Below the pieces are notes generated by a model, which was not told the DNA's origin, ran no database searches, and saw nothing but the letters and a program-made list of their open reading frames with translations. A stretch of DNA of 42,106 bases. Origin: a virus. The first letter of the stretch is position 1; each line of letters starts with the position of its first letter. This document shows positions 9,943 through 32,758 of the stretch, in pieces. Position numbers and translations under genes: made by a program. The stretch lies in the IMG/VR virus record IMGVR_UViG_3300021431_000203, positions 1 to 42,106 of that record. One strand, given 5' to 3'.

Positions 9943-9998
9943 TTTCGTCACCTTTTCCGTTTGAAAGTTCTTCTTCCATTTCTTTTGTTAGTTCCATG

Positions 9999-18874: not shown

Positions 18875-19741
18875 TTATAAACTTACTGATTCTGCTGGGA
18901 ATTTTGCAACAACAACTTTTGATTCATCAGTTAAAGCAGCAACATAGTGTTCATCTGCACCGATTAGAGTTGTATAGTTATTTAATTCTCTTTGAGTTTC
19001 AATGTTTACATTTCTCTTCATGAAAATTGTAACGGCTGCAGTTTCATCTCCAGTTTGTGATTCTGCCTTTAATTCAACGATTGGATTTAAATATAAAGTT
19101 CCTTCGTCATTAATTGCTTTCTTACTTGGTACTATTCTAGTGTTAGCAATCATACCAATTTCACCACGCATAATAACATTGTTATTATATTTATCGTTTG
19201 AAATAAAGTTTTCATCTTTTCTTAATTCTGATACTTGATGTGGGTGAATAAACATTACTTTTTCAACGTTTTCTTCTTCCTCTAATACATCAATAGCATC
19301 AACAACGTTATTATAAGAAATACCAGTTTCAAAAGTTTTTCCTAATTGAGCACCTTTTAAAGCGTCCATAACGTCATTATCAACTTTACTAGCGATTGCT
19401 TTTGCAAGTTGTGAGTTAGTTTCTCCTACTGGATTACCATAACCACTTAATACAGCCTCGTCAGTTAATTCAACTTGTTTAACTGCCTTTTTAATAGTAT
19501 ATGGTTCACTTGTAGTTTCAAGTTTAGTTTTATCAGCATTTACGCCTTCTGCTAAATCTTCTGCATCTCCTATATACTTATATTTTGGTATTGTTATTGT
19601 ACTTCCCGGTCTTCCAACCAAAGTATTGTCAATCTTTGCGAATGGTGTTGCAACGATTGCTTTTTCTAATTTTGCACTAATCATTGGTGCCATAACTTCA
19701 GGATCAATTAATTTGTTTAATGTTGTTGTTCCTGTTGCCAT
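18875..19741 (-). CDS. Major capsid protein
   Basis: A 288-aa ORF after the scaffold gene. MATGTTTLNKLIDPEVMAPMISAKLEKAI...GRPGSTITIPKY is typical of Firmicute siphovirus major capsid proteins. Confidence 0.8.
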   Translation of the reverse strand: MATGTTTLNKLIDPEVMAPMISAKLEKAIVATPFAKIDNTLVGRPGSTITIPKYKYIGDAEDLAEGVNADKTKLETTSEPYTIKKAVKQVELTDEAVLSGYGNPVGETNSQLAKAIASKVDNDVMDALKGAQLGKTFETGISYNNVVDAIDVLEEEENVEKVMFIHPHQVSELRKDENFISNDKYNNNVIMRGEIGMIANTRIVPSKKAINDEGTLYLNPIVELKAESQTGDETAAVTIFMKRNVNIETQRELNNYTTLIGADEHYVAALTDESKVVVAKFPAESVSL

Positions 19742-19761: not shown

Positions 19762-20379
19762 TTAATTATTATATTTGTTAAATAACTCTGGATTAGATGC
19801 TTTTAATTCTATTCTTTCTTTGTAACCCATTTTGTCGAAGTCTGCCTTTGATACAACATTTTCAACTGTTTCATCAACACTTGGCATATCTACAACTTTG
19901 TTAGGGTTTTCAAATATTCCATCTTTTCCGTTTGTTATTTCCTCGAATAAATCTTTTGCAGATTTACCCATATTTGCACTATCTTTAAGTGCTGTTTTGA
20001 TTTCGTTCATAATTGCATTTTTTGTAAAATCATTTACGAACTTCTTATCACCAAATACAGAAGTTATATTTTTTGTTAAAATGTCGTCTTCTTCTTTGGC
20101 TTTTTGTTTTGCAGTTCTATCAGCCTCTTTTTGCTCATATTCTGCTATTTTTGTTTTAAGACTTTCCATTTCATCAGATTTAGGAGCATTTTCAATTTGC
20201 GATTTTAAATCAGCAATTGTAGTCTTATTATCTTCTAATTGGCTTTTGTACTCATTGTCAATTTTTTCTTTTTCTATTTTAAGATAATCTCCATGTTTAC
20301 CAAGAATACTTTTTACTTCTTCTTTAGTTAACTTAACTTTCCCTTCTCCTATTTCTAAACTTTCTAAAAAATCTTTCAT
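19762..20379 (-). CDS. Capsid scaffolding protein (GP20-like)
   Basis: ATG 20379 after AAAGGAGG; the track uses an upstream TTG. It is an acidic coiled-coil protein directly upstream of the major capsid gene. Confidence 0.75.
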   Translation of the reverse strand: MKDFLESLEIGEGKVKLTKEEVKSILGKHGDYLKIEKEKIDNEYKSQLEDNKTTIADLKSQIENAPKSDEMESLKTKIAEYEQKEADRTAKQKAKEEDDILTKNITSVFGDKKFVNDFTKNAIMNEIKTALKDSANMGKSAKDLFEEITNGKDGIFENPNKVVDMPSVDETVENVVSKADFDKMGYKERIELKASNPELFNKYNN

Positions 20380-20464
20380 AATATTTCCTCCTTTAGATTT
20401 TTTCAAGTGGTCAACTCCACCATAAAGATTTAATATCGGAGTTCTCTTCCGAACTCTTAACTAA

Positions 20465-20492
20465 ATTATAGCACAGTTTTAAAAAAACACAA
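20465..20492 (-). promoter_or_regulatory. Sigma-A-type promoter with extended -10
   Basis: Minus strand reads TTGTGT, a 16-nt spacer, then TGCTATAAT. A structured leader of about 60 nt follows. Confidence 0.6.
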
Positions 20493-20502
20493 AATCGCAT
20501 AA

Positions 20503-20526
20503 TAAAAAGCAAGATTATTTCTTGCT
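20503..20526 (-). terminator. Rho-independent terminator
   Basis: Minus strand reads AGCAAGA-AATAA-TCTTGCT, then TTTTTATT. The stop codon of the glycosyltransferase gene lies in the loop. Confidence 0.75.
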
Positions 20527-21720
20527 AGTTTTCTTTTTAGTTGTCTTTTTTGGTTTTTCTTCTAATTCTACTGTTTCTTTTGCACTTTCTTGTATTTTTT
20601 CTATTGTTTTGTCAACATTTTTAATTTTTGGTATTTCTTCTTTAAATATTCTTAATATTTCAACACCACCATTTTCTTTTAAGTATTCTGCTCTTTCAAC
20701 TGAACAAATCCATGTAGAATTTAATTCACGCCATTCTCTATTATTTTCTATATCTTGAAATCTTTTAATTGCTTTTACTTCTGCTTTCATTTTTAAATCC
20801 TCCTCATAATGTGATTTAGTTTTATCTAATAAATTGTCATATCCATCTTCTATATGTTTAAATGTAAATTTTAAAGGCGTTTTCATTTTTAATGCTATTT
20901 CGTCTGCATTTGAATTATCTATATTATAAAATAAAGCATTTTCATTATCTTTTATTCCTATTTCTTTAAAATATGGCAATTCACATACAACAATTGGTGT
21001 GCCTCTATATAATGCTTCTTTTAATGAATAACTATCTCCTTCACATGAAGAAAGTTGAACATACCAATCTGCTTTTTCCATAAATTGTCCTAATTCTAAT
21101 CTGTTTTTCACATGCACTATGTTTTTATTATTCCATATTGCATTATTTTTGTATTCATCAGTTGTGAATATATACCATATAAACTTTATTCCTTGTCTTT
21201 CCAACGCTTCTGCTAGTTTTAAATGTCTTCCATTGTCTTTTATTTTAGTTAATCTTGTTGCACTTATTAAAGTAAGCATTGGTTCTTCTTCTTCAATTGT
21301 TAATGGATTTCTACATAGTATTGTTCTATCAATTCCTGTTATTTCTTCAAAGTTCTTTTTACTTATATCTGTAATACCTATATATGTTATATCTGGTCTA
21401 TCTTTCGGAAGCCCTAATCTTTCAGTTGAATCCTTATAATCAGTATGCAAAACTGTATATTTTTTTGCGTCTTCATTTACATAATCATAAATAGATGTAT
21501 CCCAATTCGTAATAATAACATTACACTTTATTTGTTGTTGTTTATGTATATAAACTCTACAATACTTTTGTAGTCTTTTCTTTTGTTCTGGTGCAACATC
21601 TTTGCATACAACTGCAATATCATAATTTTTATACTTTTTTGCAAGTTCATAAACAAACGTTTCAACACCACCTATTGCATGTATATTTCTAACATAAAAT
21701 ATGTTTGCATGTTCAATCAT
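20515..21720 (-). CDS. GT-B fold glycosyltransferase (GT4 / Glycos_transf_1-like) with a C-terminal extension and Lys-rich tail
   Basis: N-terminus IHAIGGVETFVYELAKKY. The E-x7-E motif is SSCEGDSYSLKEALYRGTPIVV. The C-terminus is EEKPKKTTKKKTSKK. Confidence 0.7.
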   Translation of the reverse strand: MIEHANIFYVRNIHAIGGVETFVYELAKKYKNYDIAVVCKDVAPEQKKRLQKYCRVYIHKQQQIKCNVIITNWDTSIYDYVNEDAKKYTVLHTDYKDSTERLGLPKDRPDITYIGITDISKKNFEEITGIDRTILCRNPLTIEEEEPMLTLISATRLTKIKDNGRHLKLAEALERQGIKFIWYIFTTDEYKNNAIWNNKNIVHVKNRLELGQFMEKADWYVQLSSCEGDSYSLKEALYRGTPIVVCELPYFKEIGIKDNENALFYNIDNSNADEIALKMKTPLKFTFKHIEDGYDNLLDKTKSHYEEDLKMKAEVKAIKRFQDIENNREWRELNSTWICSVERAEYLKENGGVEILRIFKEEIPKIKNVDKTIEKIQESAKETVELEEKPKKTTKKKTSKK

Positions 21721-21736
21721 CTAATCACCTAAAATA

Positions 21737-21765
21737 ATTATATCACAAAAAGAAAAGACTGTAAA
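21737..21765 (-). promoter_or_regulatory. Sigma-A-type promoter with extended -10, overlapping the upstream terminator
   Basis: Minus strand reads TTTACA, a 17-nt spacer, then TGATATAAT. Confidence 0.6.
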
Positions 21766-21774
21766 ATTACAGTC
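21747..21774 (-). terminator. Rho-independent terminator
   Basis: Minus strand reads GACTGTA-ATTT-TACAGTC, then TTTTCTTTTT. Confidence 0.75.
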
Positions 21775-22130
21775 TATTGTATCTTCCAAGCACAACGCAT
21801 AATTCTATTACTTGGATTAAATGTGTCTATTATATCGCCACCAATAATAGCAGTAATATGTCCGTCCATTGTTACGGCATACCTTCCGTATGGGTGTTCT
21901 TGTGCAAACTCGCCCACGGTCTTTGAATAATGACACTCTCTAGGGTATCGGTCGTCCAAATAATCCTCGACAAACTCCACCCTATCAAACATCATACTAA
22001 CATCACCCGCTAAATCCGTAAGTTCATCGTACATATCACGCCAACTTTTACCAGTTAATACAGACAAACTACGGATAACGCAGTCTGATATATCCCTATT
22101 ATGTGGGTTTTGATTATGATAAACAAACAT
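21774..22130 (-). CDS. Small putative papain-like (Cys/His) hydrolase, GC-rich relative to neighbours
   Basis: NQNPHNRDISDCVIRSLSVL (Gln plus Cys) and TMDGHITAIIGGDIIDTF (His plus Asp) suggest a C-H-D arrangement. My hand GC counts on two 60-nt lines gave 43% and 48%, against about 22% in the adjacent glycosyltransferase gene. Confidence 0.45.
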   Translation of the reverse strand: MFVYHNQNPHNRDISDCVIRSLSVLTGKSWRDMYDELTDLAGDVSMMFDRVEFVEDYLDDRYPRECHYSKTVGEFAQEHPYGRYAVTMDGHITAIIGGDIIDTFNPSNRIMRCAWKIQ

Positions 22131-22131
22131 A

Positions 22132-22605
22132 TTATCTCATACTATTTTGTAATGATTGCATTAACTGTTGTTTTTGTTGTGGCGTTTCAGCCTCTTCTTT
22201 TAACACCATGATGAAGTCTTCAAGTGCTTTTACCATATAGTGGAAACTCTTATCGGTTTCTTCACCTGCACCGTATCTATTACGTGATTCCATATAACGA
22301 CCATAATCATCATACATTCTATCTAAATGCTCGTGTCCTCTATATTTCATATCATAACCACGTCTTCCATAATTACCTCTGTCGTAGTCTCCATAGTTAT
22401 CACGTCCATAACTATCATATCCAGCACGTCTTCCACGTCCATAATTTCCATATTCTCCGTACATTTCTTTATCCTCCTTTGCCATGTGTTTTATTTTACT
22501 TAATTTATATAAGTGGTCTAGGTTGTTTGTGTTTATATCTTCATCAAGTATGTGTTTAATCTTCTCATCGACCTTTTCTATTACTTTGTCTTCCAAATTA
22601 CTCAC
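22132..22605 (-). CDS. Tyr/Gly/Arg-rich low-complexity protein
   Basis: Central segment MYGEYGNYGRGRRAGYDSYGRDNYGDYDRGNYGRRGYDMKYRGHEHLDRMYDDYGRYMESRNRYG. The start is uncertain: GTG 22605 or TTG 22596 after AAGGAG. Confidence 0.65.
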   Translation of the reverse strand: MSNLEDKVIEKVDEKIKHILDEDINTNNLDHLYKLSKIKHMAKEDKEMYGEYGNYGRGRRAGYDSYGRDNYGDYDRGNYGRRGYDMKYRGHEHLDRMYDDYGRYMESRNRYGAGEETDKSFHYMVKALEDFIMVLKEEAETPQQKQQLMQSLQNSMR

Positions 22606-22780
22606 TCCTTTCTTTTAAGAGTTTTAATATTTCTTCTTGGTTTTTAATAATTTTTTCAAAATACTGTGTATCTTGCTTTTGTAATTCTTGCATTAAATCA
22701 GTATTGTTAAAGTCTTTAAACAGTATTTCTAAACTTAATATTTGTAATATTAATGATGATATATCTAAATTATTCTTCAT
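22598..22780 (-). CDS. Hypothetical protein (60 aa)
   Basis: Track ORF, TAATG-coupled to the upstream gene. Confidence 0.6.
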   Translation of the reverse strand: MKNNLDISSLILQILSLEILFKDFNNTDLMQELQKQDTQYFEKIIKNQEEILKLLKERSE

Positions 22781-23253
22781 TATCTATTAAGCCTACTTAT
22801 ACTAAATGTAGCATTAGTTATAATTGCCTGTGTAGTTGCTATTGGTGTTGTAGGTGTAGTTGGTGTTGGTACGCTTGGAACTGATTGAACTGATATATTA
22901 GTTGTTCCACGTGGGCAAACTCTTAATTTCTTATCAAATGAAACAGTTTCATAATCATCGGCTGCTGCAATTGTTACGGCTCTAACTGTGTCAGGTATTA
23001 ACACTCCATCTTGGAACAAACCTATTGCCACAACCCCCGGAGTTGCTGTACTTACCGAAGCACTAAACTCTACATCATAATAGCCTGTGTATCCGTTTCC
23101 AAATATTTTAAAGTTAGGATTGCCGTTTGAATAATCTAACCAACCATTGCAACTACAAGAAGCACATCTTGTTCTAATGTCAGTTTCATCAAAAGTTATA
23201 GGACTTGCATTACTTGGCAATGCTAATGGTTCATTTATAATTGTTTCTATCAT
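22780..23253 (-). CDS. Beta-sandwich protein resembling BclA C-terminal / C1q-TNF-like domains, with a Thr/Pro-rich segment (157 aa, trimmed start)
   Basis: ATG 23253 after AAAGGAGA. The pattern FKIFGNGYTGYYDVEFSASVSTATPGVVAIGLFQDGVLIPDT...NISVQSV...ATFSISRL resembles C1q/BclA-CTD strands. Also present are VPSVPTPTTPTTPIATT and a CASCSC motif. Confidence 0.45.
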   Translation of the reverse strand: MIETIINEPLALPSNASPITFDETDIRTRCASCSCNGWLDYSNGNPNFKIFGNGYTGYYDVEFSASVSTATPGVVAIGLFQDGVLIPDTVRAVTIAAADDYETVSFDKKLRVCPRGTTNISVQSVPSVPTPTTPTTPIATTQAIITNATFSISRLNR

Positions 23254-23276
23254 ATTATTTCTCCTTTCAATAAATT

Positions 23277-23303
23277 TGCACAATATAACACGAATTTTGT
23301 GCA
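23277..23303 (-). promoter_or_regulatory. Inverted repeat enclosing an extended -10 (candidate operator/promoter)
   Basis: Minus strand reads TGCACAA-N13-TTGTGCA, and the N13 contains TGTTATATT. It lies upstream of the C1q-like gene. Confidence 0.45.
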
Positions 23304-23350
23304 TTTTTCATTCTATATAAGTCTATAAAACCAATTATTGTACATTTTTG

Positions 23351-23388
23351 TTTTATAAAATAAAGAGAATAGAACTATGCCTATTCTC
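23351..23388 (-). terminator. Rho-independent terminator
   Basis: Minus strand reads GAGAATAG-8 nt-CTATTCTC, then TTTATTTTAT. Confidence 0.7.
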
Positions 23389-23414
23389 CGTTAAGTACCG
23401 TTAAGTACCGTTAA
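23388..23414. repeat. 10-bp tandem repeat (ccgttaagta x2.7)
   Basis: ccgttaagta at 23388-23397 and 23398-23407, then ccgttaa at 23408-23414. It lies in the 3' UTR between the stop at 23462 and the terminator. Confidence 0.9.
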
Positions 23415-23425
23415 ATTAGCAAGTT

Positions 23426-23452
23426 CTCGTAATCGAGCGTGTCGTAATCGAC
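23426..23452. repeat. Pair of near-identical mini-hairpin motifs
   Basis: ctcgtaatcgag at 23426-23437 and gtcgtaatcgac at 23441-23452. Each has a 4-bp stem around taat and both share the core tcgtaatcga. Confidence 0.85.
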
Positions 23453-23461
23453 TATATGCTA

Positions 23462-24376
23462 TTAAATAAATTGACTTGTTGTGTTAAATCCACAGCCACA
23501 ACCGTTGTTTTGTGGGCAACTGAAAATCGCAGTGCGTCCATAGACCGGTGTTGACGGAATAGGGCAATTGACTAGGCGGTTATACATTAAATCAATTTCA
23601 TTATTTAATGAATTTGATATAAATGCGTTTTGAGCAGTTTGACTAGCTCTTAAATCAGCCATTTGTAATTGTCTATTCAAGTCAGCTATTTTTGAATCTT
23701 TTTCATCTATTCTATCTCTGAAAAGTTCATCTTTTATAGACTGAATTCCACCAGTAATCGCTGTTAGTAATGTTTGAGTGTTTTGAGTATCACTCGTTCT
23801 TGTAGCACAAGCCTCACGAGCAATATCAGAACCTAAATTAGCAATACCTAATCTGTTCTCACAGCAACAGTTGTCAAGTGATTTTTGAAGCCCATTAAAT
23901 CCTTGAAGTGTAGCAATTTGATTGTTGAAACTTTGATTCATGTTAGCCATTTGTCTGTTGCAAGCAGCAATTTCTGAATTATAGAATCCATTAGAAACAT
24001 TGCTATTTATACTTGCAGTTGAATTGCAAATAGCGTTTTGTATATCATTTACATCGTCTCTAACACCCTCAATTTGGTTGCTTAAATGTAATGAGTTAAA
24101 TCCATCACTTGTTTGGTTCATAATGTCTTTTTGACCGTTGCTTAACCAAGCATAACCATTGTCAAATGAGTTTCCTCCGAAGAATCCACCGTTACTATTA
24201 CCCCAGTTTCCACCAAATAATGCAAGTAATAATATTACCCAAATAAAGTCGTTTCCATAACCTCCGAAACCACCGTTTCCATAACCACCCATCATAGGAT
24301 ATACTGGATATGGATAAAATCCGTTTCCGTTGTTGTTAGTAGCCAATTCTACTGTTGGTTGAATGCCTCCATTCAT
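23462..24376 (-). CDS. Gly-rich / single-TM / Cys-containing coiled-coil protein of unknown function (304 aa, trimmed start)
   Basis: ATG 24376 after GAGGAGGAG. The N-terminus is GGYGNGGFGGYGNDF, the TM segment IWVILLLALFGG, then GNSNGGFFGGNSF. An N/Q/S-rich region carries DNCCCEN, and the C-terminus is CPQNNGCGCGF. Confidence 0.7.
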   Translation of the reverse strand: MNGGIQPTVELATNNNGNGFYPYPVYPMMGGYGNGGFGGYGNDFIWVILLLALFGGNWGNSNGGFFGGNSFDNGYAWLSNGQKDIMNQTSDGFNSLHLSNQIEGVRDDVNDIQNAICNSTASINSNVSNGFYNSEIAACNRQMANMNQSFNNQIATLQGFNGLQKSLDNCCCENRLGIANLGSDIAREACATRTSDTQNTQTLLTAITGGIQSIKDELFRDRIDEKDSKIADLNRQLQMADLRASQTAQNAFISNSLNNEIDLMYNRLVNCPIPSTPVYGRTAIFSCPQNNGCGCGFNTTSQFI

Positions 24377-24466
24377 AAATCTTTCTCCTCCTCTCAAATA
24401 AATATTTAAGACGCTAGAAATCTTATAAGGAAGTACTATCTAGCATAATACCCCCTTACAAGACTT

Positions 24467-24709
24467 TTAGCCTTGCTTATTTTGATTAAACATTCCCATC
24501 ATTTGTTCCCATTGTTGGCGTTGTTGTGGATTAAATCCGTTTACTGTTTCATTTAATAAATCCTGTGGATTATTGTTCTTTCTTGCTTCTTGATACCTTT
24601 GAAACGCTTGTGGATTTGTTGCTTTCAAGTTTTTCTCCATCTGTGAAATCAACTGTTGTGGTATTTGTTGCATTTTGTTTTGCATTAACATTTTTAACAT
24701 CTGCATCAT
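24467..24709 (-). CDS. Gln/Met-rich small protein (80 aa)
   Basis: MMQMLKMLMQNKMQQIPQQ...QQRQQWEQMMGMFNQNKQG. GAGGAAAG lies 10-11 nt upstream of the ATG. It overlaps the upstream ORF by about 140 nt in the +1 frame. Confidence 0.5.
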   Translation of the reverse strand: MMQMLKMLMQNKMQQIPQQLISQMEKNLKATNPQAFQRYQEARKNNNPQDLLNETVNGFNPQQRQQWEQMMGMFNQNKQG

Positions 24710-25097
24710 TTTCTATCTTTCCTCTCAATTCTTCAATTTGTGCTTGTAAGTATTCTATTTGCATGTCTTTTGCGTCTTTTGGAACTATCTCATTTAACTC
24801 ATAAGATTTTATATCGCCCTTCGTGTTTTTAATCCACATAACCGTCATATCTTTGCTAAAAAATGGTGTGTCATAATAAACAACCTCTTTATTAACATCA
24901 TCAATAGTATTAACAAACCTCATTGTGTGATTAGTAGGGGCTAGTTGAAAGTTTTGAGTTAAGTTTGTAGGCTGTGGTGTTTGAACTGGTTGTTGCATTT
25001 GTTGACGCATTTTTTCTAATTGTGATATTTGCTCATTTATTTTATCTAGGTTTGCTTGTGGATTATATACATTATTAAAATATGGATTATTATACAT
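24570..25097 (-). CDS. Gln/Asn-rich protein (175 aa, trimmed start)
   Basis: ATG 25097 after AAGGAG; the track uses GTG 25103. MYNNPYFNNVYNPQANLDKINEQISQLEKMRQQMQQPVQTPQP... Confidence 0.65.
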   Translation of the reverse strand: MYNNPYFNNVYNPQANLDKINEQISQLEKMRQQMQQPVQTPQPTNLTQNFQLAPTNHTMRFVNTIDDVNKEVVYYDTPFFSKDMTVMWIKNTKGDIKSYELNEIVPKDAKDMQIEYLQAQIEELRGKIENDADVKNVNAKQNATNTTTVDFTDGEKLESNKSTSVSKVSRSKKEQ

Positions 25098-25113
25098 TTT
25101 CACATCTCCTTAA

Positions 25114-25164
25114 TTAATATAAGAAAAAGAGACATGATATGATTAGTGGTTGAATTGGTTTCAT
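25114..25164 (-). other. Leader mini-ORF (16 codons) embedded in a promoter-proximal terminator
   Basis: AAAGGAGA, 7 nt, then ATG. MKPIQPLIISCLFFLY*. The ATG lies in the 5' arm of the hairpin and the ORF ends after the T-tract. Confidence 0.35.
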
Positions 25165-25175
25165 ATCTCTGTCTC
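25123..25175 (-). terminator. Promoter-proximal intrinsic terminator / attenuator
   Basis: Minus strand reads GAGACAGAGATATGA-18 nt-TCATATCATGTCTC, then TTTTTCTT. It lies downstream of the promoter at 25189-25197 and upstream of the RBS of 25097. Confidence 0.65.
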
Positions 25176-25188
25176 CTTTCTTGATTAA

Positions 25189-25197
25189 ATCATACCA
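25189..25197 (-). promoter_or_regulatory. Extended -10 promoter element (TGGTATGAT)
   Basis: Minus strand reads TGGTATGAT, between two terminators. Confidence 0.45.
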
Positions 25198-25220
25198 TTT
25201 TTAATAGTGTAAAAAAGGGT

Positions 25221-25244
25221 AAAAAAAAGAACTTTTTAAAGTCC
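25221..25244 (-). terminator. Rho-independent terminator
   Basis: Minus strand reads GGACTT-TAAA-AAGTTC (one G-U pair), then T8. The stop codon of 25236-26447 lies in the loop. Confidence 0.65.
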
Positions 25245-26447
25245 TTTAATTTTATCATTTACTCTTTTAAATATTTTCTTCACGCCGTCATAGGTATAAT
25301 TATATTTGTTGCTTACTTGCAACGCAGATTTATTATTAACAAAATAATCATAACAAATTTTGTAGTCTAGGCTATCTTTATCTGTTACTTTTAAAATGGT
25401 TTCTTCAAATAAGTTATTCGGCATTCCTTTATATAATGGTTTATAAGTTTTCTTAACGAGTTTAGATGTGATATATGAAAGACCGACACCAAGCATTATA
25501 GGTATTAATATACTTATTCCAAGTGGTGTAGTAATTCTATTTAGTATATAGTAGGTTAGGTTTGATACGATGAAACATTGTTTCATACTAGGTAAATGAA
25601 AAGGTTTGCCGAATGTTCGTTTGCTTAACCAAAATGAAGTTAGGATAAACAAGCATTCAATAAATGTGTCGTTTAGTCTTGCAACTAATAATATTATAAC
25701 TATTGTTAAGATGTTCCAAATTAAACTTAAAATGAAATAAATGATATAAGTTAATTTTGTTTCTTTGTCTAGTTCTTTAAAGTTATGCAAGTTTCTTCGC
25801 AATCTTTTTGGCAACTTTAACAAGTTTGCTTTCGTCTGCGAAAATGAACCAACTGTTATTCCACATATCTTCTTCTCTCCTTCCATAAAATATAATCTAT
25901 TAGTTATTAACAATAATAGAATATAATCAAATGATAATAAAGCATTTAATACAAAGCTATTTTGTTCTTGATAATTTATATTTCTAATAAACAAAGTTAT
26001 TGCTTGATAAAATATGCTAACTAAAAATGTAATTATTATTCTTTTCAAAATTTTATTTTTATATTTCAAGTTTATTATATTAACAGATAAAAACATAAAA
26101 GCTATATCTATAAACATATTAATAGTTACATCATGAATTTTATTTTCAAAAATTTTTAAGCATACACCTAAGATAGTTAATATCAATGAATATATTTTGA
26201 TTTGTTTACTATTGCTTTTGAATATTAAACTTATTAAAAAATAAGTGTATAAATATAATACTATAAAATCATATAAATTTGCCATATAAAATTTGTGTAA
26301 CAAAATATCAATTTTAATTATCACTTGGTTATCAGTAGTTAATCCAAAATAATCCAACCCCACTATCTTCATTATAAACGTTATTACGAGTAAAAACGTG
26401 TAAACTTTCAAACTTGTGCTTAAATATTTGTCATAATCTTTAAACAT
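25236..26447 (-). CDS. Polytopic membrane protein (about 10 TM segments) with a soluble C-terminal helical (HTH-like) tail
   Basis: A 403-aa ORF, hydrophobic throughout. The C-terminus is SLDYKICYDYFVNNKSALQVSNKYNYTYDGVKKIFKRVNDKIKGL. Confidence 0.7.
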   Translation of the reverse strand: MFKDYDKYLSTSLKVYTFLLVITFIMKIVGLDYFGLTTDNQVIIKIDILLHKFYMANLYDFIVLYLYTYFLISLIFKSNSKQIKIYSLILTILGVCLKIFENKIHDVTINMFIDIAFMFLSVNIINLKYKNKILKRIIITFLVSIFYQAITLFIRNINYQEQNSFVLNALLSFDYILLLLITNRLYFMEGEKKICGITVGSFSQTKANLLKLPKRLRRNLHNFKELDKETKLTYIIYFILSLIWNILTIVIILLVARLNDTFIECLFILTSFWLSKRTFGKPFHLPSMKQCFIVSNLTYYILNRITTPLGISILIPIMLGVGLSYITSKLVKKTYKPLYKGMPNNLFEETILKVTDKDSLDYKICYDYFVNNKSALQVSNKYNYTYDGVKKIFKRVNDKIKGL

Positions 26448-26460
26448 ATTCCCCTCCTAC

Positions 26461-26491
26461 AAAAAAAGCGAGGTAAACAGATAAACCTCGC
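26461..26491 (-). terminator. Rho-independent terminator placed immediately upstream of the next RBS
   Basis: Minus strand reads GCGAGGT-10 nt-ACCTCGC, then T7, then GTAGGAGGGGAATATG. Confidence 0.75.
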
Positions 26492-26499
26492 AAAAAACA

Positions 26500-26895
26500 T
26501 TATACACTTTTGTTTTTCTTTTTGTCAACGACTGTGTTTCGACAACTTCTAATAAATTCAATTTCGCTTGTTATGTAAGAATTTGCATTTAATTGATTGT
26601 GATATTTGTCATACAATTCTTCAATATGTGTATAATCATTGTCAGTTCTCGTTAATCCATTTCTTAAACTACCACTAAATTGTAGTATTTCATATCGGAT
26701 TCTATCTCGCTCGTTTATATCAACTTTTTCATCAACTTTTTTTATTTGTTTACTCAAAGTTTCAATACCAAGCAACTTCCCACATATCTTCCCAAGCCAT
26801 GTAAAAGGATTTATTTTAATAGGTGATATTTCTATCCCTATCATTGCCAAAACGCCTAAAAGTACACCATACTGCTCAATAATCTTTTGTATCAT
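26500..26895 (-). CDS. Single-pass membrane protein (131 aa, trimmed start)
   Basis: ATG 26895 after GGAGGA. TM segment YGVLLGVLAMIGI, then a soluble helical domain. Confidence 0.6.
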   Translation of the reverse strand: MIQKIIEQYGVLLGVLAMIGIEISPIKINPFTWLGKICGKLLGIETLSKQIKKVDEKVDINERDRIRYEILQFSGSLRNGLTRTDNDYTHIEELYDKYHNQLNANSYITSEIEFIRSCRNTVVDKKKNKSV

Positions 26896-26958
26896 ATCAT
26901 GTCCTCCATTATCTGACACAATAATTATAACATGGTTTTTTACTTTTGACAAAGTCGG

Positions 26959-27135
26959 TTATTTTACTGTTTCTTTTTCAATTATAATCTTATTATCTTT
27001 TGCATAAACTCTTATAAAATCATCTTCCTTTATGCAACTTTTTTGTAATACTTCCTTTGGAACATTTACAATATAGCAGTTGACTTTTCGTTCGCCAGTT
27101 CTACTATAATAATAATTTTTGTTTAATTTAGGCAT
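26959..27135 (-). CDS. AbrB/MazE/SpoVT-type (swapped-hairpin) DNA-binding protein (58 aa)
   Basis: Below the track cutoff. ATG 27135 overlaps the upstream stop as TAATG. VNVPKEVLQKSCIKEDDFIRVYAKDNKIIIEK aligns with B. subtilis AbrB VVIPIELRRTLGIAEKDALEIYVDDEKIILKK. Confidence 0.65.
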   Translation of the reverse strand: MPKLNKNYYYSRTGERKVNCYIVNVPKEVLQKSCIKEDDFIRVYAKDNKIIIEKETVK

Positions 27136-27422
27136 TATTCAACCTCCTTTAAAACATCTCTTAATTCTTTTATATCTTCTTCATAATTGCAAGGTATATT
27201 ATCGTATTCAAATTGTGGTCTATTTAATATCTCATTAGCCTTGTATATTTTGGATTGTAAATTGTTTAATTTTTTTAAATTTTCTAATATATACCAATAT
27301 TCATATTCATAATCGCTAGTGCAATCAATATAACCGCTTTCTTCAACATCTTTAATATATTTTTCAAGCGTTATTTTGTTGTCCCAATACTTATGTTTTT
27401 CTTTTAAAACAAATTCATTCAT
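27135..27422 (-). CDS. Hypothetical protein (95 aa)
   Basis: Track ORF with ATG start. Confidence 0.65.
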   Translation of the reverse strand: MNEFVLKEKHKYWDNKITLEKYIKDVEESGYIDCTSDYEYEYWYILENLKKLNNLQSKIYKANEILNRPQFEYDNIPCNYEEDIKELRDVLKEVE

Positions 27423-27701
27423 TTACTCCACTTCCTTTTCAATCTTTTTACCATTTATTTTTATTTCAAAGTTTTTCATATTTGAACCTAAACCAATACT
27501 TTTTTCTATTCGCTTTTGTAAAGATAATATCGGGCATTTTTTTAATGCTTTCTTTTTGATTCTTCTATTTTTAGTTCTATGATATATTTTTAAATATTGT
27601 TGTGGGTCTATTAACGGTATTACATATTCTCTATCGTAATCACCCAATATAATTGGGCTTTTACATATAATCCCACCTTTTGTAAATTTAGGTATTTTCA
27701 A
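27423..27701 (-). CDS. Hypothetical basic protein (92 aa)
   Basis: Track ORF with TTG start. Confidence 0.55.
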   Translation of the reverse strand: MKIPKFTKGGIICKSPIILGDYDREYVIPLIDPQQYLKIYHRTKNRRIKKKALKKCPILSLQKRIEKSIGLGSNMKNFEIKINGKKIEKEVE

Positions 27702-27702
27702 T

Positions 27703-27882
27703 TTACGACACTTCCTTTTCTTCTTTATCTTCTATTTCTATTATTCTTGTATATCTTACAAATTTTCTTGTTTTATTATTACTATATCTTATTTCACTTA
27801 TTGATGGTACTACTTGCAATGATATATTATAATCTTCTTCATTTAGTTCATTTATCATTTGTTTCAAGTCTTCTAATTTCAT
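27703..27882 (-). CDS. Hypothetical protein (59 aa, trimmed start)
   Basis: ATG 27882 after GAGGTGG. Confidence 0.5.
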   Translation of the reverse strand: MKLEDLKQMINELNEEDYNISLQVVPSISEIRYSNNKTRKFVRYTRIIEIEDKEEKEVS

Positions 27883-28081
27883 TCCATTCCACCTCACTTT
27901 TAAATAAATCTTCTAATTGAATTATAATTTCATCTAAATTTAAACAACCATTAAACAATATGCTTTTTTCTTCACCATAGTTATCATAATAAACCATAGT
28001 GTCAAATTTATGCCCAAAATTCCAATAACTTATTTCATTTATTGTAATATATTCATTTCCATTACTAAAAGTTATTTTCAT
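27848..28081 (-). CDS. Hypothetical protein (77 aa)
   Basis: Track ORF with an ATGA overlap with the upstream gene. Confidence 0.6.
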   Translation of the reverse strand: MKITFSNGNEYITINEISYWNFGHKFDTMVYYDNYGEEKSILFNGCLNLDEIIIQLEDLFKSEVEWNEIRRLETNDK

Positions 28082-28482
28082 ATTTCCTCCTTAAATAAAT
28101 CATTTATTGGTTTCCATTCTTCATCAGATATAATACCACGGTCGTGTTTTTCTTCTAGGTTGTAATAACATTGTTTAAAATAACGGTCGCTATGTTCTGG
28201 AAAAAACAGTTTAATTATACATCCTGTTTCCTCAATACAAAAATCAAGTATTTCATTATAATATTTGTTATTATATTTAATATTTCTTTTTGATAATTCA
28301 TTAATAACAACATTTACATAATCATAGAAATATTGCTTATCATAATCTTTAACATAACTAACCAACCTATGTTTTAATGTTCCTTTTTCCCATTGCCTTT
28401 TAATAGCAATACATTCTCTCCATTGGCTAACTAACATTTCTTTAGGTAAAACTGGAATAAGTTTATAATGCCATAGTCTCAA
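28078..28482 (-). CDS. Pyrimidine-dimer DNA glycosylase-like protein (T4 endonuclease V / TIGR02328-like)
   Basis: The N-terminus MRLWHYKLIPVLPKEMLVSQWREC and FPEHSDRYFKQCYYNLEEK match the conserved MRLWH..LI..LP...L..QhRE and YPEH motifs of the Firmicute DenV-like family, as recalled. TTG start. Confidence 0.65.
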   Translation of the reverse strand: MRLWHYKLIPVLPKEMLVSQWRECIAIKRQWEKGTLKHRLVSYVKDYDKQYFYDYVNVVINELSKRNIKYNNKYYNEILDFCIEETGCIIKLFFPEHSDRYFKQCYYNLEEKHDRGIISDEEWKPINDLFKEEI

Positions 28483-28483
28483 T

Positions 28484-28801
28484 TTAAATCATCTCCTTTT
28501 TATAATAATCTTTCAAAATTAATTCTTTAACTTGTTCATCGCTTAATGGATTACTAATACTATCAAAGAATATTAATCCATGTGTAATAATTTTATATGG
28601 TTCATTTAAATGTTGCACAACAACGGTTGTTTCACATCTAATTTGTTTGTCTTCTTTTGCTAATTCGTTTTTTAATTTAATTATTTGTTCTACATTATTT
28701 CTTTCTAAATGATATCCATTTTTTTCTAAAAAAACATACATATCATTATCTATTTTTTTTGACATTTGTCTAGCATATTCGTTCATTAATTCATCTAACA
28801 T
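28484..28801 (-). CDS. Hypothetical protein (105 aa, trimmed start)
   Basis: ATG 28801 after GGTGA; the track uses GTG 28813. Confidence 0.6.
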   Translation of the reverse strand: MLDELMNEYARQMSKKIDNDMYVFLEKNGYHLERNNVEQIIKLKNELAKEDKQIRCETTVVVQHLNEPYKIITHGLIFFDSISNPLSDEQVKELILKDYYKKEMI

Positions 28802-28824
28802 TTTAATCACCACACTTCCTCTTG

Positions 28825-29055
28825 TTAAATAAATTTATAAAACATTTTACCTTTTCTAACATAAAATTTAATTGGTCTTATAATATGTTCTTTTTCAGTA
28901 TCATATTCAAATTGCCAATAATACATATCTTCCGGCATTTTAAATTTTTTATTTTGTTTCTTAATTTCTTGCCAGTCCCTATATGCGTCCCACAATGTTG
29001 GATATGCCTTTATATATCCTTCTTGTTCACCATATAATACAATTTCTTTGTTCAT
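28825..29055 (-). CDS. Hypothetical protein (76 aa)
   Basis: First gene after the promoter at 29087-29115. Confidence 0.6.
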   Translation of the reverse strand: MNKEIVLYGEQEGYIKAYPTLWDAYRDWQEIKKQNKKFKMPEDMYYWQFEYDTEKEHIIRPIKFYVRKGKMFYKFI

Positions 29056-29086
29056 AATTACCTCTCCCTTTCTTAACTACACCTAT

Positions 29087-29115
29087 ATATTAACATATAT
29101 ACATATAAATGTCAA
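29087..29115 (-). promoter_or_regulatory. Strong sigma-A-type promoter
   Basis: Minus strand reads TTGACA, a 17-nt spacer ending in TGT, then TAATAT. Confidence 0.7.
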
Positions 29116-29136
29116 CACTATTAATTTAATGTAAAC

Positions 29137-29164
29137 AAAAAAAGAACTATTTTGTTTTAGTTCT
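29137..29164 (-). terminator. Rho-independent terminator
   Basis: Minus strand reads AGAACTA-8 nt-TAGTTCT, then T7. It overlaps the stop of the minor capsid gene. Confidence 0.8.
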
Positions 29165-30358
29165 TCTATAACCACTTACGGTTAATCGTTTCATTTTCGT
29201 AGGTAATCCACTAATTTGTGATAACTCTTTATATTTTTGTGTTAACTTTGTAATATTGCTTTGTGCCGTTCCTACAAGTTCCATATCACCACTCGACTTG
29301 GCTAGTATTTGTATGTCTTTCTGCTCACGTATGGCACGTTCTAATTGGCGTTGGAGTTGTGTACCCTCGTATAGTGAATAGTGTTTGCCGTCTAATATAA
29401 AACCTTTGTTATTATCATCTATTTTCTTTTGTAATTCCTCATCAGTATATGTAGGCTTACTAACACCTAGTACAATACTAAATATGTAATGATAACAATT
29501 CATTTCACTAATAGGACGGTGTGAGCCATTGTCGTCGTGGTCTAATGAATATGCCTTACCTTTGTAATCAATAGCCACGCCACCACTTTGTAATTTATTA
29601 AACTCCTCATTACTAAATTGTCGTCCTTGTACGTTTTCGTGGTCGTCTGCTGGGTTTTCGTGTACCGATATTTCTACACCATCAGCCCCAAACTCTTCAC
29701 CGTATATCTTTTGTAATTCGTTGTGTAGTTCCCTTAATTTACTTTTAAGGTGCATACGAACGGTGCTATCAAGTCTAACTTTTCGCCCACTTTTATAATC
29801 AACAGTTTTTAAGCCACTGCCACCTATATCTTTTAAAATACGCCTCATAGAACTGTCAAAAGTTTCCTTACCTTGCGACACGTTAAGTAAAGCCTCGTCA
29901 AGTACATAGTTGTATGTGTCTTTTAAATTCATAAATTCGCCGTTTATAGTAAAACCTAGCAAGTTCGCACGTGTGTAGTTATACATCTCGTTTTTAACAA
30001 TATTAGCAAGTGCCCTAGTTTGCATTTTAAGGGCTGTATTTTCGGTGAAAGGTACAAAAGGTATATTTCTATACTTATAAAACTTTTCATAGAATAATTG
30101 GTCTCTTTTTGCGTAAGAATTGAATATATTGTCTATATCTTGTATGTTCAAGTCGGTGTACTTGGCTATTTGTCGCACTATTTCGTCATAATTGCCACCA
30201 TATTTAAGTATTTCAACAAGTTGGTGGGCTTGGCTTGGTGTAAGTTCCTTTATTTGCCTTAAAGCACTACCTATTTTTTTATAAAAGAATATATTTGCCT
30301 TGTTTATTCGTTCAACCAAACGCTCGGTTAAAAATTCAATTTGGCTTTCGTTTATCAT
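29147..30358 (-). CDS. Minor capsid / head morphogenesis protein (SPP1 gp7 / Phage_min_cap2-like)
   Basis: A 403-aa ORF. The N-terminus QIEFLTERLVERINKANIFFYKKIG and the central VHENPADDHENVQGRQF...EMNCYHY resemble the gp7/minor-capsid-2 family. Confidence 0.65.
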   Translation of the reverse strand: MINESQIEFLTERLVERINKANIFFYKKIGSALRQIKELTPSQAHQLVEILKYGGNYDEIVRQIAKYTDLNIQDIDNIFNSYAKRDQLFYEKFYKYRNIPFVPFTENTALKMQTRALANIVKNEMYNYTRANLLGFTINGEFMNLKDTYNYVLDEALLNVSQGKETFDSSMRRILKDIGGSGLKTVDYKSGRKVRLDSTVRMHLKSKLRELHNELQKIYGEEFGADGVEISVHENPADDHENVQGRQFSNEEFNKLQSGGVAIDYKGKAYSLDHDDNGSHRPISEMNCYHYIFSIVLGVSKPTYTDEELQKKIDDNNKGFILDGKHYSLYEGTQLQRQLERAIREQKDIQILAKSSGDMELVGTAQSNITKLTQKYKELSQISGLPTKMKRLTVSGYRRTKTK

Positions 30359-30374
30359 AGTATCACCTAATTAA

Positions 30375-30383
30375 ATTATACCA
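30375..30383 (-). promoter_or_regulatory. Extended -10 promoter element (TGGTATAAT)
   Basis: Minus strand reads TGGTATAAT, directly after the terminator at 30386-30409. Confidence 0.5.
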
Positions 30384-30385
30384 CA

Positions 30386-30409
30386 CAAAAAAGGATTGTT
30401 AAAATCCTT
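30386..30409 (-). terminator. Rho-independent terminator
   Basis: Minus strand reads AAGGATT-TTAAC-AATCCTT, then TTTTGTG. Confidence 0.75.
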
Positions 30410-32099
30410 ATTCGTTTGATTTATATTTTATATAAACTTGTGATGGTGTTATTTCAGTTTCTATGTTTAAGGTATTATTTCCGTCTATTGTTGATATATT
30501 TGGTAGTGTTATTGATTCTTCTGTTGGGGTTGCTAATACATAGTCTACTGTTACATTATTAGATTGTAGCCATGTTGTAAAATCAGTTAATGTAGTTATA
30601 TTTGGTACTCTCATTACAATATCATTATAATATTCATTGTTTATTGCACCATAGCCTATTCCTACATTGCCTTGATATATTGAGCCTCTGCTGTTTGCTA
30701 ATAACATATTACAAAAAATTGGAGGCATTGTAAGGCTTTCAGTTCTAATGTTTTTACCATCGATTTTTATACAATTCATACCTTCTCTTATCATTTTTAT
30801 CTGTTCGTCACCAATTAATGTATATTCTTTTATATTTCTAACAGCCTTACCATTTATAAAATCAATGTAATCACTATATCCATCTATTTTTCTTAATGGT
30901 TCATCTAGGTATATATTTGTTGTTTCGTTGTAGTATGGAATGTATTTTGATGGTGCTATTGAGCCTTCTACTATCATGATACTGTCTAATATTTGTTGTT
31001 TGCTAGTAGTATTACTATTCTTACCACAATAAAATAATAAATATTTGGCAGTAGAAGACGTAGTATATACGCATTGCGTTTCAGTAGTTCCATCGTTATA
31101 TTTGAAAAAATTTGTAGTTTGTATTCCTTGAACCGGAATTTCTGAAGTACATCCAACTCTAAATCTATTATTTGCAGTATCAGATTGCAACATTTTTTTT
31201 AAAACATATGCAGTATTTGGTTTACATTCAATATACACAATATTATCATAATTCGAAGGATTCCCGTTTCCACTTACAACGCCTGTCCCACTTAAATAAC
31301 CGCCATAAACATTAGCATTATCTTTATCAAATAAATTTTCACTTCTAACATTAACCGGTATTTTATATTTGCCATAATTAATATCACTTGTATCAGTTAT
31401 TAAATCTCCACAACTTACCATTTCTTGTGGATAATCTGGATTAGGGCTTGGCTGACCTCCTGTATATTCTTCATATGTATCAATCGGATTTGTTGATACA
31501 ATTATGTCTTTTATTTCATATACAGCATCACTAACATTAGCAGTGTTTTCTGCTTGAAAAACCATTTGGTTTGCTATTATATCTGTTGATACAGTTTGCT
31601 TAACTGAATATATTACAAATTCATTAGAAACTCGATTATTAGTAATGCGTGTGTTAGTAGCATAAGTTGTACCATTATATAATCTACCACCATAACTTAG
31701 TATTGAGGCGGTCCCACTCTTCAATCTAACTTTAAATGTTGTGTATAATTCATCACCTGCTTTTAGTGGTATATCATTGATATTGACATAAAATGTGCTT
31801 GCACGAGCTAATGGGGTTGTAGTTATTACTCCATTATCAACTGTACAACGAAGTCTTGCGGTCATATTTTTATCATCTAATAAATTCTTTCCACTTGTAG
31901 TATTCTGGTATGTATTACCATACACTTTATAATCTTTTAAATCCTTACCAATACCACCAAAGGTAATAGGCAAAGTTGTACTTGTTTTTTCTCTTAAAAA
32001 GCCACGTTCAAATACAACCTCACCGTTTTTTAAAATCTTATCTATACTTTCATTGTCTTTATAAATAAATCCTATTTGTTTGTTTGCTTTCATTATCAT
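30408..32099 (-). CDS. Fibre / receptor-binding-like structural protein (563 aa)
   Basis: A beta-rich, N/T/S/Y-rich ORF. The motifs YGNTYQNTTSGKNLLD and GGQPSPNPDYPQEMVSCGD recur in Firmicute phage fibre proteins, as recalled. Confidence 0.5.
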   Translation of the reverse strand: MIMKANKQIGFIYKDNESIDKILKNGEVVFERGFLREKTSTTLPITFGGIGKDLKDYKVYGNTYQNTTSGKNLLDDKNMTARLRCTVDNGVITTTPLARASTFYVNINDIPLKAGDELYTTFKVRLKSGTASILSYGGRLYNGTTYATNTRITNNRVSNEFVIYSVKQTVSTDIIANQMVFQAENTANVSDAVYEIKDIIVSTNPIDTYEEYTGGQPSPNPDYPQEMVSCGDLITDTSDINYGKYKIPVNVRSENLFDKDNANVYGGYLSGTGVVSGNGNPSNYDNIVYIECKPNTAYVLKKMLQSDTANNRFRVGCTSEIPVQGIQTTNFFKYNDGTTETQCVYTTSSTAKYLLFYCGKNSNTTSKQQILDSIMIVEGSIAPSKYIPYYNETTNIYLDEPLRKIDGYSDYIDFINGKAVRNIKEYTLIGDEQIKMIREGMNCIKIDGKNIRTESLTMPPIFCNMLLANSRGSIYQGNVGIGYGAINNEYYNDIVMRVPNITTLTDFTTWLQSNNVTVDYVLATPTEESITLPNISTIDGNNTLNIETEITPSQVYIKYKSNE

Positions 32100-32103
32100 A
32101 GGC

Positions 32104-32754: not shown

Positions 32755-32758
32755 ATTT

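Follow-up and report, generated by a model that had tools for sequence, protein, structure and literature searches.

What kind of system do seven adjacent genes of unusual composition encode in the late region of a phage genome, and do these genes belong together at all? They lie at 21774-25097 on the minus strand of IMG/VR virus record IMGVR_UViG_3300021431_000203, of which positions 1 to 42,106 were analysed; this whole stretch of 42,106 nucleotides (nt) is referred to as the window. An earlier note, made by reading the window alone, had singled out the genes as two back-to-back operons beside a glycosyltransferase and had proposed a surface-layer, exosporium-like or virion-decoration system. 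Here we show that the seven genes, hereafter the cassette, are a conserved, mobile and accessory unit in the late regions of tailed phages that infect anaerobes of the rumen and gut, and that these phages exchange the genes together. All seven open reading frames (ORFs) and products named in the earlier note are present, in two terminator-bounded units, and their starts, fixed by ribosome-binding sites together with homologue alignments, are as given there:

24570-25097, minus strand: protein of 175 amino acids (aa), ATG at 25097 behind an AAGGAG ribosome-binding site
24467-24709, minus strand: 80-aa Q/M-rich helical protein with its own ribosome-binding site GAGAGGAAAG
23462-24376, minus strand: 304-aa protein with a single hydrophobic helix, ATG at 24376
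23364-23389, minus strand: terminator-like hairpin closing unit 1, after the 304-aa gene
22780-23253, minus strand: 157-aa protein with a predicted jelly roll, ATG at 23253 after a GAAAGGAG ribosome-binding site
22598-22780, minus strand: 60-aa helical protein, start codon overlapping the jelly-roll stop codon
22132-22605, minus strand: 157-aa Y/G/R-rich protein
21774-22130, minus strand: 118-aa protein, predicted papain-like enzyme
21756-21775, minus strand: terminator-like hairpin closing unit 2, after the 118-aa gene and followed by an extended -10 promoter for the glycosyltransferase gene
25113-25163 (approximate), minus strand: mini-ORF of 16 codons (MKPIQPLIISCLFFLY), 67 nt ahead of the 175-aa gene and preceded by a strong Shine-Dalgarno sequence

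The cassette is conserved as a set. Homologues of the 304-aa protein were used to gather loci from 57 IMG/VR contigs, nine contigs of metagenome-assembled genomes and several ENA/Logan contigs, and tblastn with the window proteins recovered the seven genes in identical order and orientation on every sufficiently long contig. Across 75 loci, detection was most frequent for the 304-aa gene (74), then for the jelly-roll gene (71), the 118-aa gene (67), the 60-aa and Y/G/R-rich genes (66 each) and the 175-aa gene (65), and least frequent for the 80-aa gene (58). The clustering is not a product of chance, because the order recurs in about 65 independent contigs; the gene set picked out in the earlier note therefore co-occurs far beyond the window.

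Conservation extends to the way in which the first two genes are coupled. In the window, the last 140 nt of the 175-aa gene (24570-24709) double as the beginning of the 80-aa gene, read in the +1 frame. A +1 overlap of this kind, 89-143 nt long, is retained in 55 of 55 loci, and the overlapped tail is the least conserved part of the 175-aa protein. Because a ribosome-binding site is present, the 80-aa gene is likely to initiate independently rather than to be expressed by a +1 frameshift fusion.

Although order is fixed, location is not. Three types of late-region site were found across the carriers: the interval between minor-capsid and scaffold genes, used by the window and many relatives; the position directly after the lysis genes, in loci L003, L055 and L067, Butyrivibrio phage Ceridwen and Dulem virus 33; and a position just upstream of the terminase genes, in locus L007. 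Among 80 loci encoding relatives of the major capsid protein of the window, the cassette lies upstream of the scaffold gene in 20. A further 25 loci, with major capsid proteins at least 60% identical and with both minor-capsid and scaffold genes in view, have an interval free of any cassette gene, which in 10 of the 25 is filled by a glycosyltransferase. These cassette-free intervals in relatives identify the interval as a hot spot and the cassette as dispensable for building the virion.

Diverged versions widen the range of carriers. Dulem virus 33 has six of the seven cassette genes in recognisable form, at about 27-30% identity and in the same cyclic order: 118-like, 175-like, 80-like, an inserted HNH gene, 304-like, jelly roll and an analogue of the Y/G/R-rich gene. 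Profile comparison with hhalign supported its jelly roll (91%) and the Y/G/R-rich analogue, which has the same architecture (52%, E 1.5e-4). Phage Ceridwen (proteins QHJ73765-QHJ73769), isolated on Butyrivibrio fibrisolvens (PMC7372960), carries 118-like, 175-like, 80-like, 304-like (39% identity) and jelly-roll (hhalign 97%) genes. Further diverged versions occur in lemur and human gut phages, with several human gut contigs holding at least four of the families, and the 304-aa and jelly-roll genes are adjacent in every Firmicute-phage version checked. At the nucleotide level, a megablast comparison of the 6-kb region with 50,697 phage records gave no match.

A distant relative was found in the crAss-like phage cr52_1, whose gp23 is a clear homologue of the 304-aa protein (hhalign 99.3%), sharing the hydrophobic helix, a CCC motif and a CPxP...CGC tail. 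When the neighbours of gp23 were compared with the cassette families by hhalign, gp23 was the sole clear homologue; the region possibly represents a strongly diverged cassette, carried by a Bacteroidota phage. In this region (L158, 2757-6646), gp20 and gp21 are transmembrane proteins, the latter annotated as LysB/FtsL-like, gp22 has a Y/G/R/D-rich tail whose resemblance to the cassette is suggestive only, and gp24 is a Thr-rich, 144-aa beta-type protein. The cr52_1 genome reads one in-frame stop codon as sense.

Within the window, the two-operon anatomy described earlier is supported by terminator-like hairpins and promoter-like sequences. A terminator scan returned seven hairpin sites of this type against 1.6 expected, an extended -10 type promoter-like sequence (TGnTATAAT or a near match) lies ahead of each unit, and this architecture is that of the minor-capsid, scaffold and holin units. 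All four genes of unit 2 have overlapping or abutting stop and start codons. Short direct repeats were noted between the 304-aa gene and its terminator (23385-23445, minus strand), where CGATTACGA is present twice and ACGGTACTTA as two tandem copies plus a partial third.

The extreme composition reported for these proteins was borne out by comparison across 68 non-nested minus-strand ORFs of the window. The top three Q+N fractions all belong to the cassette (0.20, 0.20 and 0.18; z about +2.3 to +2.9), and the Y/G/R-rich 157-aa protein has the highest G+Y content (z +2.8), with z +3.6 for Y+G+R. The 80-aa protein consists of 22% Q and 12% M.

Mini-ORFs comparable to that ahead of the 175-aa gene recur, with a Shine-Dalgarno sequence, a length of 14-26 aa and a position 55-95 nt upstream of the 175-aa homologue, in about 14 of 53 distinct loci; in these homologous loci they have a basic N-terminus and end in ...LLLF[IV]. 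The mini-ORF of the window (MKPIQPLIISCLFFLY) may be a leader or attenuator peptide, an eighth micro-protein or an AgrD-like substrate.

Of the individual products, the jelly-roll protein gives the clearest structural lead. Its homologues begin with MIETIINE, which places the start at ATG 23253 and not at that of the 174-aa ORF, and its N-terminal segment of about 35 residues is predicted to be disordered, with a conserved Cys just before the jelly roll. The protein also contains a TPTTPTTP stretch. An AlphaFold2 monomer model, built from a shallow alignment, is all-beta (predicted local distance difference test (pLDDT) 69, predicted template modelling score 0.65). Searched with Foldseek against the PDB, the model found the C-terminal domain of BclA as best match (E 5e-5, probability 1.0), followed by the F-BclA tip of F-ENA, EDA-A1 (query-based template modelling score (TMq) up to 0.55) and 4-1BBL; in BFVD its matches were small uncharacterised proteins of gut phages at E 5e-9 and TMq 0.67, of which some go under the name 'BclA protein', and C1q tips of collagen-like phage fibres. 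Resemblance extends to the CBM35/CBM6 carbohydrate-binding modules. The model thus shows a TNF/C1q jelly-roll fold like that of the BclA C-terminal domain, as the earlier note had suspected from the letters. At the sequence level, the protein had no match to the C1q, TNF or BclA families of Pfam and NCBIfam at E <= 0.1 to 1, its profile retrieved nothing relevant from the PDB sequences, and no collagen-like GXY repeats occur in its 157 aa.

The 118-aa protein, previously read as a small Cys/His hydrolase-like protein, has an invariant set of residues in its family (N6, N8, D16, C17, R20, W30, H91 and D102), including the triad Cys17-His91-Asp102, which is invariant in alignments of 61 and 121 sequences. 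In an AlphaFold2 model (pLDDT 91), Cys17 opens a helix (17-26), His91 opens a strand (91-96) and Asp102 closes the next one (99-102), a papain-like arrangement. On the basis of the model and the alignments, the protein is predicted to be a papain-like Cys-His-Asp enzyme of an unassigned family. It matches phrog_3754 (E 5e-17), and its superfamily comprises 3213 clusters at 50% identity, mostly stand-alone proteins. Relatives include the 'putative peptidase' genes of Bacillus Tsamsa-like phages, which stand alone among early accessory genes near an Ocr-like gene, and an equally stand-alone gene in Geobacillus GBK2. A Pfam scan of 61 family members returned no match (NlpC/P60, CHAP, C39 and transglutaminase core included), and longer relatives scanned for domain fusions contained no Pfam domain. 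Weak, non-significant fold matches were seen to Tse1/Tae1 and to C39 double-glycine peptidase, deubiquitinases and UfSP (TMq 0.37-0.42 for the last three).

The 304-aa protein has an N-terminal peptide GIQPTVELAT, continues through a single hydrophobic segment (FIWVILLLALF, residues 44-54) with Gly/Tyr-rich flanks and an N/Q/S-rich helical region of about 200 aa, and ends in a Pro/Cys-rich C-terminus; it has 10 Cys. Its family alignment conserves the N-terminal peptide, an acidic residue before the helix, and the motifs CCC(E/D)xR and CPxP...C...GCGC. The protein matches phrog_16490 (E 1.7e-22) and has at least 7971 relatives in metagenomes, none of them named; matches to the 304-aa and 118-aa families number at least about 7800-7970 each. 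Among PDB sequences, its profile found nothing significant, the ZorA coiled-coil tail (E 0.01) being a compositional match.

The remaining proteins are largely of low complexity. In the 175-aa protein, a Y/N/P/Q-rich N-terminus is followed by a coiled coil, a small beta domain, a second coiled coil and an S/T/K-rich tail; an alignment of 51 sequences conserves the beta domain (FFSKD...W.K...Y.L.EI) and only poorly the tail. Searches of every family member against Pfam, and of the family against the PDB, gave nothing beyond coiled-coil noise, a HIP1 match being compositional. The Y/G/R-rich protein has helical ends that flank a Tyr/Gly/Arg/Asp-rich low-complexity core, and the sole match of the 60-aa protein is sub-threshold (XPC-binding/STI1-like, E 8.8e-5). 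Matches to XPC-binding, Sec16 and alpha-xenorhabdolysin families in the Pfam, PHROGs, NCBIfam and PADLOC scans were rejected as sub-threshold noise. No signal-peptide-like N-terminus was found when the sequences of the six soluble cassette proteins were read.

No meaningful match to Pfam, NCBIfam, PADLOC or PDB sequences was obtained for the seven proteins, PADLOC returned no defence model for any of them even at E <= 1, and the three PHROG matches among the cassette proteins are all to families of unknown function. No description of the seven-gene set was found in the literature. The earlier statement that the combination is not a described phage system is therefore in line with Pfam, PHROGs, NCBIfam and PADLOC, and the set is outside every known kind of phage system, with the BclA-like fold and the papain-like triad as its sole links to known biology.

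The window itself is a complete circular (or terminally overlapping) phage assembly of 42,011 bp, as its first 95 nt recur at its end (1-95 and 42012-42106 are identical). G+C content is about 29%, and the minus strand carries all genes, including the following landmarks around the cassette:

34769-36310, minus strand: large terminase (family match)
33388-34764, minus strand: portal (family match)
29147-30358, minus strand: SPP1-type minor capsid protein 2 (family match)
20515-21720, minus strand: 401-aa GT1/GT4-like glycosyltransferase, an optional neighbour of the cassette
20508-20526, minus strand: terminator-like hairpin after the glycosyltransferase gene
19762-20406, minus strand: scaffold (family match)
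18875-19741, minus strand: major capsid protein (family match)
9999-10187, minus strand: holin candidate
9019-9951, minus strand: amidase endolysin (phrog_7698, E 2e-46)

Transcription order runs from terminase, portal and minor capsid protein 2 through an accessory block with the cassette to scaffold, major capsid protein, tail, holin candidate and endolysin, and replication genes. Larger ORFs first left unassigned were identified as two DNA methyltransferases, an ERCC4 nuclease, a DnaB-like helicase and a Sak4/exonuclease fusion, and no integrase was recognised among the annotated ORFs of the complete genome. The fusion is a 468-aa ORF (5471-6877, minus strand) with an exonuclease-like N half (phrog_298) and a Sak4-like single-stranded-DNA-annealing C half (phrog_2872, E 5e-71). 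The stretch from the portal gene to the minor-capsid gene (30408-33388, minus strand) contains three ORFs. One of them, of 216 aa (32104-32754, minus strand), has a C-terminal Pfam phage tail tip domain (PF24243, E 1.3e-10), an unusual place for one, and a weak match to a PHROG kinase family; the other two, of 563 and 209 aa, had no informative family match. The late region at 20407-30410 is split into many short transcription units, each with a hairpin terminator and then an extended -10 promoter-like sequence (TGnTATAAT), a pattern that precedes the minor-capsid, AgrB-like, cassette, glycosyltransferase, scaffold and holin genes.

The 401-aa gene downstream of the cassette had been described as a dedicated GT4 glycosyltransferase. 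It falls just short of the threshold for Pfam Glycos_transf_1 (25.1 bits, cut-off 26.4; E 1.4e-5), matches a PHROG glycosyltransferase (E 7e-8) and is 38-39% identical to a gene in locus L003 with a Glycos_transf_1 match, evidence that points weakly but consistently to a GT1/GT4-like enzyme. A census of 150 distinct ORFs within 3.5 kb downstream of the cassette in 48 loci found 29 with Glycos_transf_2, five with Glycos_transf_1 and two with Stealth (Stealth_CR2) domains, compared with 11 scaffold genes. With three glycosyltransferase queries, such a gene was found within 3 kb downstream in 18 of 52 loci and upstream in two of 38, so glycosyltransferases are enriched at this side of the cassette yet optional. 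We rejected them as an obligate part of the cassette, since they are missing from many cassette loci and present at the hot spot without it; of the earlier claim, frequent neighbourhood stands and dedication does not. In locus L026 (10429-13088), and similarly in L014, L023, L038, L047 and L054, two GT2 genes replace the single GT4-like gene of the window, and a possibly Stealth-like ORF of 312 aa is present at the downstream site of L026. The glycosylation module at the hot spot is thus variable.

On the upstream side, the most frequent neighbours were minor capsid protein 2 (12), small stand-alone GerE/LuxR or sigma-70 region-4 helix-turn-helix genes (about 15), XhlA (6) and endolysin domains. 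One or two helix-turn-helix genes of 68-78 aa lie immediately upstream of the cassette in many loci (for example, L018, 6622-7202, and L058, 6905-7108) and may be cassette regulators. The window has no such genes upstream; an AgrB-like membrane protein takes their place. This 403-aa polytopic protein (25236-26447, minus strand), directly upstream of the cassette, contains an AgrB domain (Pfam E 1.1e-8, above the cut-off). Its gene recurs upstream of the cassette in seven loci, and no canonical AgrD gene was seen beside it. An AgrB-like peptidase in a phage is a hint that peptides may be processed or used as signals.

What, then, might the cassette build? We tentatively favour a late-expressed, cytoplasmically assembled and membrane-anchored complex, either stalk-and-knob or coat-like, whose maturation would fall to the Cys-His-Asp enzyme. 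In this model, the hydrophobic helix would fix the 304-aa protein in the cytoplasmic membrane, and the protein would extend a long N/Q-rich helical stalk. A trimeric jelly-roll protein would cap, or link to, the Cys/Pro-rich C-terminus of the stalk protein; the Cys-bearing connector at the N-terminus of the knob would make the link, on the pattern of the BclA-type knobs of spore fibres. The 175-aa, 80-aa, 60-aa and Y/G/R-rich proteins would act as partners, adaptors or matrix, and the 118-aa enzyme would process or cross-link at least one cassette protein. Assembly would take place in the cytoplasm, as suggested by the soluble parts being free of signal peptides, and late in lytic infection, with a conditional rather than an essential advantage and with the adjoining glycosyltransferases as an optional add-on of the hot spot. 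Our preference for this model stems from the adjacency of the putative stalk and knob genes, the conserved order and translational coupling of the genes, the low-complexity, Cys-rich composition and the dedicated thiol enzyme. The terminator and promoter architecture shared with the minor-capsid, scaffold and holin units, and a complete genome in which no integrase was recognised, speak for the late, lytic setting.

Two known systems offer partial precedents. With the BclA, F-BclA and L-BclA knobs of exosporium and ENA fibres, the 157-aa protein shares the modelled TNF/C1q-like fold, a flexible Cys-bearing N-terminal segment and the lack of a signal peptide, suggesting cytoplasmic assembly, and in both cases glycosyltransferases are often encoded nearby. 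Unlike those knobs, the cassette jelly roll has no GXY stalk and no Pfam-level membership, it is encoded by lytic gut and rumen phages, one of them isolated on a host that is not known to sporulate, and its 304-aa and low-complexity partners have no counterpart among ExsY, CotY, BxpB and Ena proteins; no cassette protein had a Pfam match to the basal-layer or anchor families (ExsY/CotY, BxpB/ExsFA and Ena/DUF3992). Spore-coat maturation by Tgl and YabG likewise pairs a small thiol enzyme with possible substrates rich in Q, Y/G and Cys. A Cys-His-Asp triad is also used by transglutaminases, but the 118-aa enzyme has no sequence match or significant fold match to Tgl, Transglut_core, YabG, NlpC/P60, CHAP or C39.

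Several points weigh against the stalk-and-knob or coat model. The confidence of the jelly-roll model is moderate (pLDDT 69), and Foldseek found no significant PDB neighbour for the 118-aa model (best, Tse1, E 0.38). Allele types of the seven genes reassort nearly freely, with pairwise distance correlations of about zero across 27 distinct loci, even between segments within the 304-aa gene, and hence give no sign of co-evolution at particular contacts. For a component destined for the virion, a membrane anchor would be strange, a TNF-like knob in the cytoplasm has no obvious target, and the frequent adjacency to lysis genes and XhlA is just as compatible with a role in lysis. A more far-reaching version of the model, which we consider possible but doubtful, is that the cassette is an unrecognised, horizontally exchanged kit for a membrane- or particle-anchored stalk-and-knob appendage or a cross-linked coat, put together in the cytoplasm of the infected cell. 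Such a structure would be a viral analogue of BclA/ENA fibres, equipped with a thiol enzyme for maturation and, optionally, with glycosylation, and would change the adherence of infected cells, debris or progeny virions to surfaces or to one another. The matrix or condensate formation raised in the earlier note may also apply.

The window places the cassette inside the head-gene block, between minor-capsid and scaffold genes, which would suit a side fibre or other decoration that the virion could do without. On this reading, a trimer of the jelly-roll protein would form a lectin-like knob on capsid or tail, with the 304-aa protein as the stalk. The hydrophobic segment would mediate oligomerisation or attachment and not membrane insertion, the glycosyltransferases would modify Thr-rich linkers, and the phage would gain by adhering in the gut to mucus, plant fibre or host glycans. 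C1q-like domains cap collagen-like phage fibres, whose C1q-tip jelly-roll, lectin-like fold the cassette knob shares in the BFVD comparison, and the model also matches CBM35/CBM6. Accessory distribution is expected of such proteins, which are typically dispensable, as are T4 Hoc/Soc, SPP1 gp12 and phi29 head fibres. GT2 and GT1 enzymes are the top downstream neighbours of the cassette. Prophage TarP and the TarM/TarS-type enzymes are cytoplasmic glycosyltransferases for wall teichoic acid. Like these, and like the capsid-adjacent phage enzymes proposed to glycosylate mycobacteriophage virions (PMC11256854), the soluble GT2/GT4-type enzymes here lie beside phage structural genes; unlike in those systems, they are optional to the cassette and occupy the same site in its absence. 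We nevertheless rate a decoration role as rather unlikely, since position varies by backbone, with other carriers placing the cassette after lysis genes or before terminase genes. Moreover, known decoration proteins and fibres make do with one or two genes, far fewer than the seven here, among which are those for a hydrophobic-helix protein and a cysteine enzyme, and no component is similar in sequence to a known decoration or fibre protein (Pfam and PHROGs).

Carriers with the cassette directly downstream of endolysin or holin genes (L003, L055, L067, Ceridwen and Dulem virus 33), together with XhlA upstream in at least six loci, raise the alternative of lysis or superinfection control at the cytoplasmic membrane. 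In that case the 304-aa protein and its soluble partners would time lysis, sense superinfection or block the entry of competing phage DNA. With its short N-terminus, one transmembrane helix and large Cys-containing helical domain, the 304-aa protein resembles T4-type holin T and Rz-like i-spanins in gross architecture and conserved Cys, the weak ZorA coiled-coil tail match (E 0.01) could be read in the same way, and cr52_1 gp23 lies two genes downstream of the transmembrane and coiled-coil protein annotated as LysB/FtsL-like. Timing and exclusion functions are dispensable, as the accessory distribution would require. Against this, the proteins have no homology to holin, spanin, superinfection exclusion or defence families (Pfam, PHROGs, NCBIfam and PADLOC), the cassette partners differ from RI, RIII and Rz1, and Q/N-rich and Y/G/R-rich proteins and a TNF-like jelly roll are without precedent in such systems. 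Most carriers have Gram-positive-type lysis genes, so there is no outer membrane for a spanin to cross, and the position after lysis genes is also classic for unrelated accessory genes. The narrower proposal that the cassette is the phage's own lysis module was rejected, as the window has a separate holin candidate (9999-10187) and amidase endolysin (9019-9951) elsewhere and no cassette protein matches a lysis family. Lysis or superinfection control in general we rate as rather unlikely, on a par with decoration.

A phage-borne anti-phage defence or counter-defence system would also be accessory, mobile, borne in a hot spot and multi-gene with an enzyme included, and the 118-aa relatives among the early accessory genes of Tsamsa-like phages, near an Ocr-like gene, would fit it. 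PADLOC was negative for every product, however, no nuclease, NADase, ATPase or sensor domains were found, the composition is typical of structural or assembly proteins, and the cassette is co-oriented with the late structural units under the same type of promoter, all of which makes a defence role decidedly improbable.

Remodelling of the spore coat or exosporium of a sporulating host, the role that the earlier note had drawn from the BclA-like fold, the Cys-rich and Gly/Tyr-rich composition and the neighbouring glycosyltransferases, and to which the absence of signal peptides (as in mother-cell coat proteins) and the stand-alone GerE/LuxR-type genes upstream in at least 10 loci could be added, is very unlikely, given that a diverged cassette is carried by a phage isolated on Butyrivibrio fibrisolvens, which is not known to form spores, that the 304-aa family is present in a crAss-like phage, that the complete phage genome has no recognisable integrase, and that neither collagen-like repeats nor ExsY, CotY or BxpB homologues (Pfam) occur in the cassette.

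An order-conserved, freely recombining accessory module of seven genes is rare among phage 'dark matter'. The cassette is common to phages of Lachnospiraceae-type hosts, of uncultured rumen Firmicutes and, in part, to crAss-like phages, and this broad spread points to a widespread, overlooked conditional function of gut phages. The invariant triad, the BclA-like knob, the single predicted membrane anchor and the cultured carrier phage Ceridwen provide experimental handles. If the appendage or coat reading is true, it would extend spore-surface-like protein architecture to viruses and would represent a new mechanism of adhesion for phages or infected cells in the gut.

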